DNA of 63,701 nucleotides, filler included, from Rhabdomonas costata (Eukaryota), in the NCBI GenBank assembly GCA_019059605.1. It is 55 parts of 55 records of this genome, joined end to end, with 100 filler letters (N's around TTAATTAATTAA, not from the genome) between each part and the next. Parts side by side here need not be neighbours in the genome. Positions count along the whole stretch, not along the records: positions 40,597 to 41,657 come from JAHMHO010030779.1; positions 41,758 to 42,817 come from JAHMHO010030780.1; positions 42,918 to 43,978 come from JAHMHO010030781.1; positions 44,079 to 45,138 come from JAHMHO010030782.1; 51 more parts are not named here. One strand, written 5' to 3'. Positions 41,428 through 44,207 of this stretch are shown here, piece after piece (the stretch's first letter is position 1; the number at the start of each line of letters is the position of its first letter). The notes beneath the pieces are model-generated. The model worked only from the letters and a program-made list of their open reading frames with translations, was not told the origin of the DNA and searched no databases. The position numbers and the translations under genes are program-made.

Positions 41428-43100
41428 GTATGCCCATGCACAAAGCAGAATCGCCCTTCCCTTGCATGGCAGACGGAACATCGGCGAGTATGCACGACCT
41501 GGGGAGTGCAGCCTGTGTGTGTGGGTGTTCAGTAATACCGGGTGTCCCAAACTATATCTATGAATTAATTCTGCCCGACAAGACGTAGCAAACAGCAACT
41601 GAGTCGATTATTGAGCAGGATATCAGCTGCTGCCCCCCAGAAACACTTACTCACCAANNNNNNNNNNNNNNNNNNNNNNNNNNNNNNNNNNNNNNNNNNN
41701 NTTAATTAATTAANNNNNNNNNNNNNNNNNNNNNNNNNNNNNNNNNNNNNNNNNNNNTGTTGGGGTTTTTACTGGTTCAACCTTGTTCACATCACATTTT
41801 TCCGTGTTTAACTCTGCCCTTTATTTTCCTCCCCCCCTCTTCACTTTTCCGATTGATTTGCCTTCGTGTTTCCGTTGCTGACTGATGTGCATGAAACTGA
41901 GTATGCCTCTGTGTTTCGGTGCTCACCCGCCGTCTCTTGGATTGCTGGAACCTGAGGCTGCGACGTCGAGGTCCCCGCCGCTTCGACTTTCGGTCGGGCC
42001 GTGACCGTCCAGCGGACAGTTACTCCAAGGTCCACTTTTCCAATGCATTTTGTAGGCAGTGTTTTGTGCAGGTTCGATGGTGTACCACACCCTGTCGGCC
42101 TCGCACGAGTTTTCCCAAGTCCTAAGTCAAGACCTTGCGACAGTTTTCAGATGTTCTCAATGGCGCCCCCGTTTGTTTGCCCCCCTCAACGCGCGCGGTT
42201 ATTGGTCACAGCTGTTCTCGGGCTCTTTGCATGGCCTTGTGCCCAGAGAGCGGAGTCCATTCACCCCCCCTCCTCGTGCACGTACTGATCGTACTGATCT
42301 TTTTATCGGTGTCTCACCTTAGTCCTTTTGGCGAGCTTGCCGCCTTTCCCCCTCAGCAAAGGGGATCCGTGGCTGGACTACGGGCCGTCCTTGTATCTCT
42401 GCTTTCACGAGATTCCTTGTGGCTTCTGGGTGAGAGCCGACGGCCACTGTCCCCTGTGTCCTGTATTTCCCTGTCTCCCACCCATTCTGAATCCGTATTG
42501 GAATTTGGTTCCTTTGGTAAAACGGCTCGACCAACTTCCAAGGGTCCTTTCGTTGCGGATCCTCTTGGACTCATCTCATCCCTCCGGCCACCAGTCCATC
42601 CTTTCCCTTGTCTTACTCCTCTCGTCTGTTTCATGCTCTTCATGATATTCAATTGTTCTCTGTGCTGGAATGTGCGCGTTCACACGCCAATCGTACCTCA
42701 TGGCATTAGTGCATTCACATTGCATGGTAACTTGCGCACTTGTGAGCAGAGGTGAGGGACGCCTTCCCCGCTTCCGCCGCCGATTTGCTGGGAAGCGGGG
42801 AAGGCGTCCCCCACCCCNNNNNNNNNNNNNNNNNNNNNNNNNNNNNNNNNNNNNNNNNNNNTTAATTAATTAANNNNNNNNNNNNNNNNNNNNNNNNNNN
42901 NNNNNNNNNNNNNNNNNTCCTCTTTGTGTTTTTCCTTTCATTTTCGGTGCTGTGCTGCCAATGGTGGGGGTTCTATTTATCTGGTTCCTTGCGAGTGTGG
43001 GGCGTTGCCCTGGGGTAGGCAGAAGGGCATTTTTTTCCGGGGCACCCACGCGCGCACACCTGAGGGTGGAAACGAAGCCCGCACACCGTTCTCGGCGGGG

Positions 43101-43173
43101 GCGCTCGTGATGAATTGTCTCACGTTCCCTTCGTGACGCAGATGGCCGATACTCTTTGAGGCTGAAGGAGCGC
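43101..43173 (+). ncRNA. Box C/D snoRNA guiding LSU rRNA (peptidyl-transferase region)
   Basis: Terminal stem GCGCTC/GAGCGC, box C GTGATGA 43107-43113, D' GTGA, box D CTGA 43162-43165; guide CTCACGTTCCCT complements conserved LSU AGGGAACGUGAG. Confidence 0.88.
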
Positions 43174-43269
43174 TGGTTTCCATGGTTTCCAGAAGCGAAA
43201 CGGCGAGGGCGAGGATCTGTCTTTCTTACTTTGTTACGAGGTGTTCTTTAGGGGCCTTTGATTTGTGGG

Positions 43270-43347
43270 CCGTGCGCGAGGATGGAGCAAACCCTAATTC
43301 CGCACTGAAGTTCACGCTGAGCGAAGCTTCCCATTGCCTCTGAGCGG
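43270..43347 (+). ncRNA. Box C/D snoRNA guiding SSU rRNA
   Basis: Degenerate box C (GCGAGGA), guide AACCCTAATTCC complementary to conserved SSU GGAAUUAGGGUU just before D' CTGA 43305-43308, box D CTGA 43340-43343. Confidence 0.7.
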
Positions 43348-43455
43348 TTGGCTTTTGCCCCAGCTGGGCCTTCCAAATTCGAAGGGATCTCATGGCGGGT
43401 ATTGTGTTTAATGTTTTTTGTTGGGGGAGGGGGGGATTCGGCTCGATCCTGTTGG

Positions 43456-43531
43456 GGCCCTTTGTGACGATACAAATCTCACTCACGTTCCCCTCGTGAA
43501 TCCGATGACCGATACTGTGAGTCTGAAGGCC
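43456..43531 (+). ncRNA. Box C/D snoRNA, paralog of 43101-43173
   Basis: Box C GTGACGA, same CTCACGTTCCC guide, D' GTGA, C'-like GATGA, box D CTGA, GGCC flanks. Confidence 0.8.
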
Positions 43532-43723
43532 TCTGCTCTGTGGATCGTTTTTGGCGGGATTTCGGTTTCTTGCGTGCTTGCTTGCCTTCTTTTTTTTTGC
43601 TTTCTTTTTAGTCTTCGGGGTACGGTTCTCTTTTTGTTTCGGCATCCGAGACTACCTGTTCAACCCTTCTCTTCCAACAGAGCGCAGCGCGATGCCTGCT
43701 GTTGAGAAGGGCAGATTTGCCCC

Positions 43724-43810
43724 GCCAATGATGAGCGTACTCCTGCATTGCTCTTTGATTTGCAATGAAAGAAGACAACCCCATGCCGAGGCTGAGATTC
43801 TGATTTTGGC
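43724..43810 (+). ncRNA. Box C/D snoRNA, target uncertain
   Basis: Box C ATGATGA 43728-43734, D'-like TTGA, box D CTGA 43800-43803, terminal stem GCCA/TGGC. Confidence 0.75.
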
Positions 43811-44207
43811 CAGAACTGCCAGCCTTTTTCAAGAGCTGACACAGTTTGCACGGATTGTTGCTCGACCACTGGACGTTGGGGGCTTTCCTCTTTGTGTTTT
43901 TCCTTTCATTTTCGGTGCTGTGCTGCCAATGGTGGGGGTTCTATTTATCTGGTTCCTTGCGAGTGTGGGGCGTTGCCCNNNNNNNNNNNNNNNNNNNNNN
44001 NNNNNNNNNNNNNNNNNNNNNNTTAATTAATTAANNNNNNNNNNNNNNNNNNNNNNNNNNNNNNNNNNNNNNNNNNNNTGTTGGGTGTGTTGGAGTATGT
44101 AACCCACCCCTGGATCAATGGCCGTTCGGGCGCCTCCTCGACCGCGATGAGAAAGGATTTGGTAAGTAGAGGTAAGTAGAGGTAAGTAGGTAAGTAGAGG
44201 TGGGCAC

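Follow-up and report, generated by a model that had tools for sequence, protein, structure and literature searches.

The ribosomal RNA (rRNA) of euglenids is the most heavily modified known, and passages of PMC7672448 put the number of modifications in Euglena gracilis at 349. The small nucleolar RNA (snoRNA) genes that guide such modifications in Euglena are described in part of PMC2784804 as frequently clustered, multi-copy, and linked, and PMC7671301, in a passage citing Moore and Russell (2012), reports polycistronic clusters that yield isoforms in E. gracilis. The present work concerns a locus that resembles them, found in a 63,701-nt stretch of DNA (hereafter, the window) from the Rhabdomonas costata assembly GCA_019059605.1. 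One of its contigs, at positions 42918-43978, very probably carries four box C/D methylation-guide snoRNA genes, and possibly one AGA-box hairpin, on a single strand of a 968-bp unit that recurs head to tail in a euglenid nuclear genome. The E. gracilis clusters are tandemly repeated, and to our knowledge euglenid guide RNAs have been catalogued in that species only. A first-pass annotation of the window had treated both the hypermodified rRNA and the tandem polycistronic clusters of E. gracilis as established; the 349 sites and the polycistronic clusters can be traced to the passages cited above, and tandem repetition enters as general background.

The likeness to the E. gracilis clusters, as represented in part of the published record (Moore and Russell 2012; Russell, Schnare and Gray 2004, 2006), extends to guide genes on one strand, short spacers, isoforms, and a probable head-to-tail unit; the C/D genes may likewise be joined by a pseudouridine-guide hairpin, and the host is again a euglenid whose rRNA is heavily modified. 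The comparison is one of description and covers the present locus at the level of DNA. Two features set it apart: its probable host, R. costata, is a different, heterotrophic euglenid, and the RNAs, at 75-87 nt, would be longer than what we take to be the compact size of those in E. gracilis. The reiterated clusters of trypanosomatids, as far as passages on them go (Uliel et al. 2004; Liang et al. 2004, 2005), are likewise euglenozoan and repeated and combine C/D RNAs with single-hairpin AGA-box RNAs, and processing from polycistronic precursors is presumed in both. A comparison with trypanosome snoRNAs, proposed in the first-pass annotation, came back empty at the level of sequence: no Rfam trypanosomatid snoRNA family was matched, even at E values up to 10, and a search of the supplements of PMC3273796 (one of two files) and PMC3091756 did not turn up the guide strings. 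Polycistronic clusters of plants and green algae also give rise to several snoRNAs and isoforms from one precursor but, according to passages of PMC7671301, are mostly single-locus or intronic, unlike the short head-to-tail units described here.

No paper in the literature searched contains both "Rhabdomonas" and "snoRNA," and the latter word is absent from the R. costata genome paper (PMC8219788). If the contig is from R. costata, it would hold the first snoRNA genes described for a primarily heterotrophic euglenid, and the repeated-cluster organization and the duplication into isoforms would predate photosynthetic euglenids. The locus type and its mechanism are already established and the gain is incremental; it includes four concrete methylation predictions, of which one concerns a site beside the peptidyl-transferase center.

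Results

A 968-bp Unit Closing on Itself

The window comprises 55 assembly contigs of 1036-1065 bp, arranged longest first and joined by runs of N around TTAATTAATTAA, and the studied locus is exactly one of these contigs (42918-43978, 1061 bp). The 93 nt at its two ends are 100% identical (42918-43010 and 43886-43978), with a start-to-start spacing of 968 nt, in agreement with the unit and terminal direct repeat noted in the first pass. Such an exact end overlap indicates a 968-bp unit that closes on itself, whether in a head-to-tail repeat or in a circle. The complete unit spans 42918-43885 (+ strand) and is followed by the first 93 nt of the next unit (43886-43978, + strand); the one unit-to-unit junction, at 43885/43886, is the extent of repetition visible in the contig. 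Among the 55 contigs, 55678-56738 is the only other with overlapping ends, and its 127-nt overlap is presumably what SPAdes leaves at the largest k. The bin 42001-44000 shows a strong AT skew (-0.33). According to part of PMC8219788, the R. costata draft genome is a SPAdes assembly of whole-genome-amplified DNA with an N50 of 1194 and 51.6% GC; the draft genome of E. gracilis is described in a passage of PMC6366073 as equally fragmented.

Layout of the Elements and Spacers

Four box C/D-like elements of 75-87 nt (El1 to El4) lie in the unit, every one on its + strand, and the spacers inside the unit measure 182, 96, 108, 192, and 75 nt. Spacer composition is 33.7% T and 13.5% A, compared with a balanced 24.8% T and 21.9% A within the elements. 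The perfect box C word RTGATGA occurs twice on the + strand and is absent from the - strand, against an expectation of 0.139 per 1061 nt derived from the other 54 contigs. Box C as RUGAUGA and box D as CUGA are both complete in two of the four elements, El1 and El4. The D′ boxes of El1 to El4 read GTGA, CTGA, GTGA, and TTGA, and the C′ boxes (AGATGGC, CGATGAC, and AATGAAA) are degenerate, as is usual, with D′ and C′ kept between El1 and El3. Terminal stems range from 6-7 bp in El1 and 4 bp in El4 to 4-6 bp, offset by 4 nt, in El3 and 3 bp in El2.

The first-pass description of a non-coding contig with four C/D elements of 70-90 nt and T-rich spacers thus holds. The four elements with boxes C, D′, and D are present, the spacers are richer in T than the elements, and no Pfam family was recognized in the four longest stop-free frames of the contig; the box C of El2 and El3 is degenerate, however, and their stems are weak or offset. 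The spacer segments 42926-43034, 43036-43100, and 43560-43665 fold no better than their shuffled counterparts. A strict C/D scanner, written for this analysis, recovered El1 and nothing else in the contig, and 9 relaxed matches were found on the other 108 contig strands. The strict result indicates that the scanner is too strict for this locus, and the two results together indicate that box words alone are insufficient for El2 to El4.

El1 and Its Paralogue El3

El1 (43100-43174, + strand) is securely predicted to be a canonical box C/D snoRNA gene from its boxes, stem, and guide. Boxes C (GTGATGA, 43107-13), D′ (GTGA, 43133-36), C′ (AGATGGC, 43140-46), and D (CTGA, 43162-65) are separated by 19 nt (C to D′), 3 bases (D′ to C′), and 15 nt (C′ to D). 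The terminal stem GCGCTC/GAGCGC pairs 43101-06 with 43168-73, and the minimum free energy fold closes a stem of 7 bp. The reference ribosomal DNAs (rDNAs) for guide-target pairing were two eukaryotic units, L025 and L035, and the euglenid-like L010, which ends at position 1690 of 3401 of the large subunit (LSU) model. The D′ guide of El1 (43119-43131) contains CTCACGTTCCCT, which is antisense over 12/12 nt to AGGGAACGUGAG; from position 2-3, 13 nt pair with the L025 LSU (AAGGGAACGTGAG) and 12 nt with that of L035. Its score of 13 exceeds those of all 60 shuffled guides (95th percentile 11.6, maximum 12.8). The target is a conserved LSU sequence adjoining the peptidyl-transferase center, and the yeast 25S primer CCCAGCTCACGTTCCC, which reads G2922, places it in 25S rRNA just 3′ of the A loop.

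El3 (43456-43531, + strand) is a diverged paralogue, or isoform, of El1. The two share a 35-nt direct repeat with 86% identity, and in their pairwise alignment boxes C, D′, C′, and D and both guide cores are kept, with the flanks diverged. The boxes of El3 are C GTGACGA (43464-70, one mismatch), D′ GTGA (43496-99), C′ CGATGAC (43503-09), and D CTGA (43523-26), and its offset GGCC stem pairs 43456-59 with 43528-31. The guide contains CTCACGTTCCCC, which matches the LSU sequence at 11 of 12 positions and pairs with it exactly over 11 nt. In both El1 and El3, guide position 5 falls on the same G, the middle one of GGG. The paralogy with El1 supports El3 as a putative snoRNA gene.

The Guide of El2 and Euglenid-Type Small Subunit rRNA

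El2 (approximately 43271-43347, + strand) is a box C/D-like gene in which box C is degenerate (AGGATGG, 43279-85; 5/7 positions, with the G-A-U-G core kept) and boxes D′ (43305-08) and D (43340-43) both read CTGA. Its D′ guide (43290-43303) is the best of the cluster: it contains AACCCTAATTCC, antisense over 12/12 nt to GGAAUUAGGGUU in the small subunit (SSU) rRNA, and the match lengthens to 14 nt in euglenid-like SSU rRNAs. With the guide complement and conserved SSU sequence as a pattern, 12 loci (L001-L012) were retrieved from JGI metagenome contigs. All are eukaryotic SSU rDNA, and the five that were run against Rfam were confirmed. The guide predicts the SSU sequence GCGGAAUUAGGGUU, and all 12 loci read AACGCGGAATTAGGGTTCGATTCC; in each of these loci, retrieved as they were by a pattern built from the guide, it pairs over 14/14 nt with GCGGAATTAGGGTT, starting at position 2 upstream of CTGA. 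The score of 14 compares with a 95th percentile of 10.6 for shuffled guides.

The metagenomic SSU genes that carry the predicted 14-mer are very long and divergent. L010, for example, has an SSU of 3084 nt, compared with 1831 positions in the model, and is matched by the euglenid primer EPA-2286 with 0 mismatches. The sequence CAAGGGCTAAGCC, the 3′ half of the euglenid primer EPA-23, occurs in 7 of the 12 loci, all of which depart from the 5′ half of the primer at 4 positions; no match was obtained in the remaining 5. The two ordinary eukaryotes, L025 and L035, differ at the target site (GAGGAAUCAGGG and GGGGAAUCAGGG; in longer form, GAGGAATCAGGG and GGGGAATCAGGG) and give no guide match. Pairing over 14/14 nt with euglenid-like SSU rRNA, together with the mismatch in L025 and L035, indicates that the El2 guide is specific in its fit to SSU rRNA of the euglenid type. 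El2 is thus a putative snoRNA gene well supported by its guide. The euglenid source proposed in the first pass is upheld by the presence of the predicted 14-mer in long, divergent SSU rDNAs with euglenid primer signatures. R. costata, with which the assembly features of the window and the spliced-leader match described below also agree, is a likelier source than E. gracilis.

El4 and the SNORD34 Region

El4 (43724-43810, + strand) has a perfect box C, a weak SNORD34 match, and a plausible target region. Boxes C (ATGATGA, 43728-34), D′ (TTGA, 43755-58), C′ (AATGAAA, 43764-70), and D (CTGA, 43800-03, with an alternative at 43792-95) are bounded by a 4-bp stem in which 43724-27 pairs with 43807-10, consistent with the D box at 43800. 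The sub-threshold Rfam C/D matches fell on El4 only; among them, SNORD34 (RF00147) extends over the whole element with 17.3 bits, below the gathering score of 38 (E value 3.6). The complement of the D′ guide, AGAGCAATGCAGG, differs from the eukaryotic LSU site AGAACAATGTAGG by one mismatch and one G-U pair. This comparison covers 35 LSU loci with a readable site, among the matches listed, and one mismatch was found against each.

El4 aligns over its full length with SNORD34/U34, whose yeast member we take to be snR62, and shares its LSU site, CAAUG(U/C)AGG just 5′ of AAGGGAAGUCGGCAA, which the D′ guide covers. It differs in having three additional bases (CUC) ahead of the D′ box, which move the predicted target from the U of the family to a C 3 nt upstream. 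At 17.3 bits, El4 was rejected as a member of SNORD34, with which it shares the target region only, and the likeness is best taken as a lead and not as membership. A 5.8S target was also examined and rejected. A pattern of guide complement and conserved LSU sequence retrieved no euglenid LSU with the predicted El4 target (0 loci in genome contigs and 0 in viral contigs). The boxes and the plausible target region support El4 as a putative snoRNA gene.

Specificity of the Guide-Target Pairing

Antisense runs of at least 12 nt to the three reference rDNAs number 128 over both strands of the 55 contigs. When an xTGA at most 3 nt downstream and a C-like box at most 30 nt upstream were also required, the box pattern having been widened post hoc to admit that of El2, 2 of the 128 runs were left. 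Both are in this contig on the + strand, where they correspond to the guides of El1 and El2, and none of the 124 runs elsewhere qualified. Complementarity of 12 nt or more is therefore ordinary by chance, whereas its position between C-like and xUGA boxes exceeds chance. The first-pass annotation had proposed antisense elements to LSU rRNA in two of the elements and to SSU rRNA in one; those of El1 and El2 stand at 12/12 nt each, and that of El3, at 11/12 nt, falls within the shuffled range.

The remaining guides found nothing meaningful elsewhere in the window, and a 12-mer at 53423 is absent from rRNA. A full-text literature search for the guide words returned 25S/28S primers only.

Discussion

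The layout of the boxes, their restriction to one strand, the T-rich spacers, the El1/El3 isoforms, and the two guides placed directly before D′ agree with the first-pass view of the locus as an unannotated snoRNA cluster of the Euglena type. How such a cluster would be expressed, which nucleotides it would methylate, and how far the array would extend are put forward here in conditional terms. A polycistronic precursor would be transcribed through the unit from the T-rich + strand, the core snoRNP (small nucleolar ribonucleoprotein) proteins would assemble on the C/D and C′/D′ motifs, and the spacers would be trimmed off. Each guide would then direct fibrillarin to the nucleotide of the rRNA that pairs with guide position 5, counted upstream from D or D′. 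The predicted target of El1, and of El3 as its isoform, is the central G of LSU AAG[G]GAACGUGAG, which adjoins the peptidyl-transferase center, and for El2 it is the last G of SSU GCG[G]AAUUAGGGUU (GCG[G]AAUU). The probable target of El4 is the C in LSU AGA(G/A)[C]AAUG, which lies 3 nt upstream of the U targeted by the U34/snR62 family.

Several observations, in addition to the post hoc widening of the box pattern, weigh against this interpretation. The strict scan returned El1 only, no Rfam match reached the gathering level anywhere in the window, and both El2 (AGGATGG) and El3 (GTGACGA) combine a non-canonical box C with a weak terminal stem. The El3 D′ guide scores 10.6, below its shuffled 95th percentile of 11.8, the match of the El4 D′ guide to the LSU is not above that of shuffled controls, and 1 of the 60 shuffled versions of the El2 guide scored 14.1. 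For seven of the nine guide readings (El1 D, El2 D, El3 D′ and D, El4 D′, D1, and D2), no target in L010, L025, or L035 outscores the shuffles, and exact matches of these seven to the 49 rDNA loci listed do not exceed 11 nt. The LSU comparisons draw on two eukaryotes and on half an LSU of the euglenid-like L010, rather than on the rRNA of the host itself, and one locus from the viral collection covers the LSU 3′ end only. Finally, the tandem layout depends on a single assembled junction which, if the contig belongs to the R. costata assembly described in part of PMC8219788, comes from whole-genome-amplified DNA.

Some of these observations could also mean that the cluster works only in part, El2, El3, and perhaps the whole copy being decaying duplicates of working genes in other units. 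The degenerate box C and the weak or offset stems of El2 and El3 would fit such decay, as would the absence of targets for most D guides and the C that El3 places opposite the A of AGGGAACG, with a score within the shuffled range. El2, on the other hand, holds the longest perfect guide of the cluster, exactly before a canonical CTGA, and El3 still has the four boxes and the two guide cores of El1, a retention that looks like purifying selection. Decay of this kind is considered unlikely.

Transcription of each gene on its own, for instance by RNA polymerase III with termination at T runs, would make a polycistronic precursor unnecessary. Runs of 4-5 T are indeed found 5-17 nt downstream of El2 (43353-56), El3 (43548-52), and El4 (43825-29). 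Such runs are expected in any case because the spacers are 34% T, El1 has none downstream, and no upstream promoter element was recognized. Clusters in Euglena and trypanosomatids are described as polycistronic, as the title of Moore and Russell (2012) indicates. Individual transcription therefore appears quite unlikely, and a common precursor is preferred for the four genes.

The same four genes might instead reside on a small extrachromosomal circular DNA of 968 bp, with no chromosomal tandem array. The snoRNA clusters of E. gracilis are chromosomal tandem repeats, and nothing in the data points directly to a circle. Moreover, the 93-nt overlap differs from the 127 nt of the other cyclic contig, so that the end overlap of the snoRNA contig is no plain k-mer closure. 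Circles and tandem repeats nevertheless both leave an assembler with an exact end overlap, and euglenid rDNA itself is, according to passages of PMC9082867 and PMC2784804, extrachromosomal and circular. A circular unit is judged very unlikely; that it would accompany the circular rDNA, so that the dosage of guide RNAs could be amplified together with that of the rDNA, is likewise very unlikely. A head-to-tail array in the nuclear genome is preferred. It is extremely improbable that the locus is a non-coding satellite with box-like words and rRNA-like 12-mers by chance: 12-mers complementary to rDNA are common (the window has 128) and Rfam returned nothing at the gathering level, yet guide, xUGA, and C-like box coincide in 2 of 2 cases here and in 0 of 124 elsewhere, two perfect C boxes lie on one strand, the paralogues keep their boxes, and the 14-mer predicted by the guide is present in euglenid-like SSU rRNAs.

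Other Features of the Locus and the Window

A candidate single-hairpin AGA-box (H/ACA-like) RNA lies at 43664-43717 (+ strand) of the snoRNA unit. It has an 8-bp lower stem (CCCTTCTC/GAGAAGGG) with AGA 1 nt past the stem, and its fold of -22.9 kcal/mol (z -2.46) is equaled by 3 of 200 shuffles. One trial pattern gave no rRNA target for the hairpin. That it could be a pseudouridine-guide RNA of the euglenozoan single-hairpin type is speculative.

The second self-closing contig of the window (55678-56738) is rich in A and shows no relation to the snoRNA unit; its exact 127-nt overlap gives a unit of 934 bp. It contains a long hairpin of approximately 100 nt (55912-56013) with sub-threshold matches to miRNA (microRNA) precursors, such as MIR862_2 (32.1 bits compared with a threshold of 71, E value 4e-4).

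Among the rDNA loci collected for the comparisons, eukaryotic LSU rDNA was found in at least 36 prokaryote assemblies or metagenome-assembled genomes of the GTDB set, where it represents contaminant contigs (L024, which is NZ_QBKZ01000001.1, L025, L035/L038, and 32 others). Two complete SSU-5.8S-LSU units are present among the contaminant contigs listed, one with a group I intron in the LSU.

At 36360-36381 (- strand), 19 of 22 positions match the published R. costata spliced leader (SL; ACTGAGTGTAATCATTTTTTTT), a level reached by 0 of 100 shuffles, and the 102 nt from this match fold into a layout like that of an SL RNA. In the surrounding 36285-36400 (- strand), the leader match is followed by a small stem-loop, a single-stranded CCUUUUG, and a 14-bp terminal hairpin; the match departs from the published leader in its first 5 nt and at the exon end. 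The segment may be a variant SL RNA gene or a pseudogene.

The bin 52001-54000, which holds contig 52198-53257, has 31.9% G+C, compared with 43-52% in the rest of the window, and the contig has an open frame of approximately 309 codons without a stop. It may come from another genome, be it an organelle, prey, or a contaminant. At 44161-44201, 4.3 tandem copies of GGTAAGTAGA, a repeated word resembling a 5′ splice site, lie directly beside a - strand exon (44195-44420) that reads like what we take to be a conserved region of a P-type ATPase.

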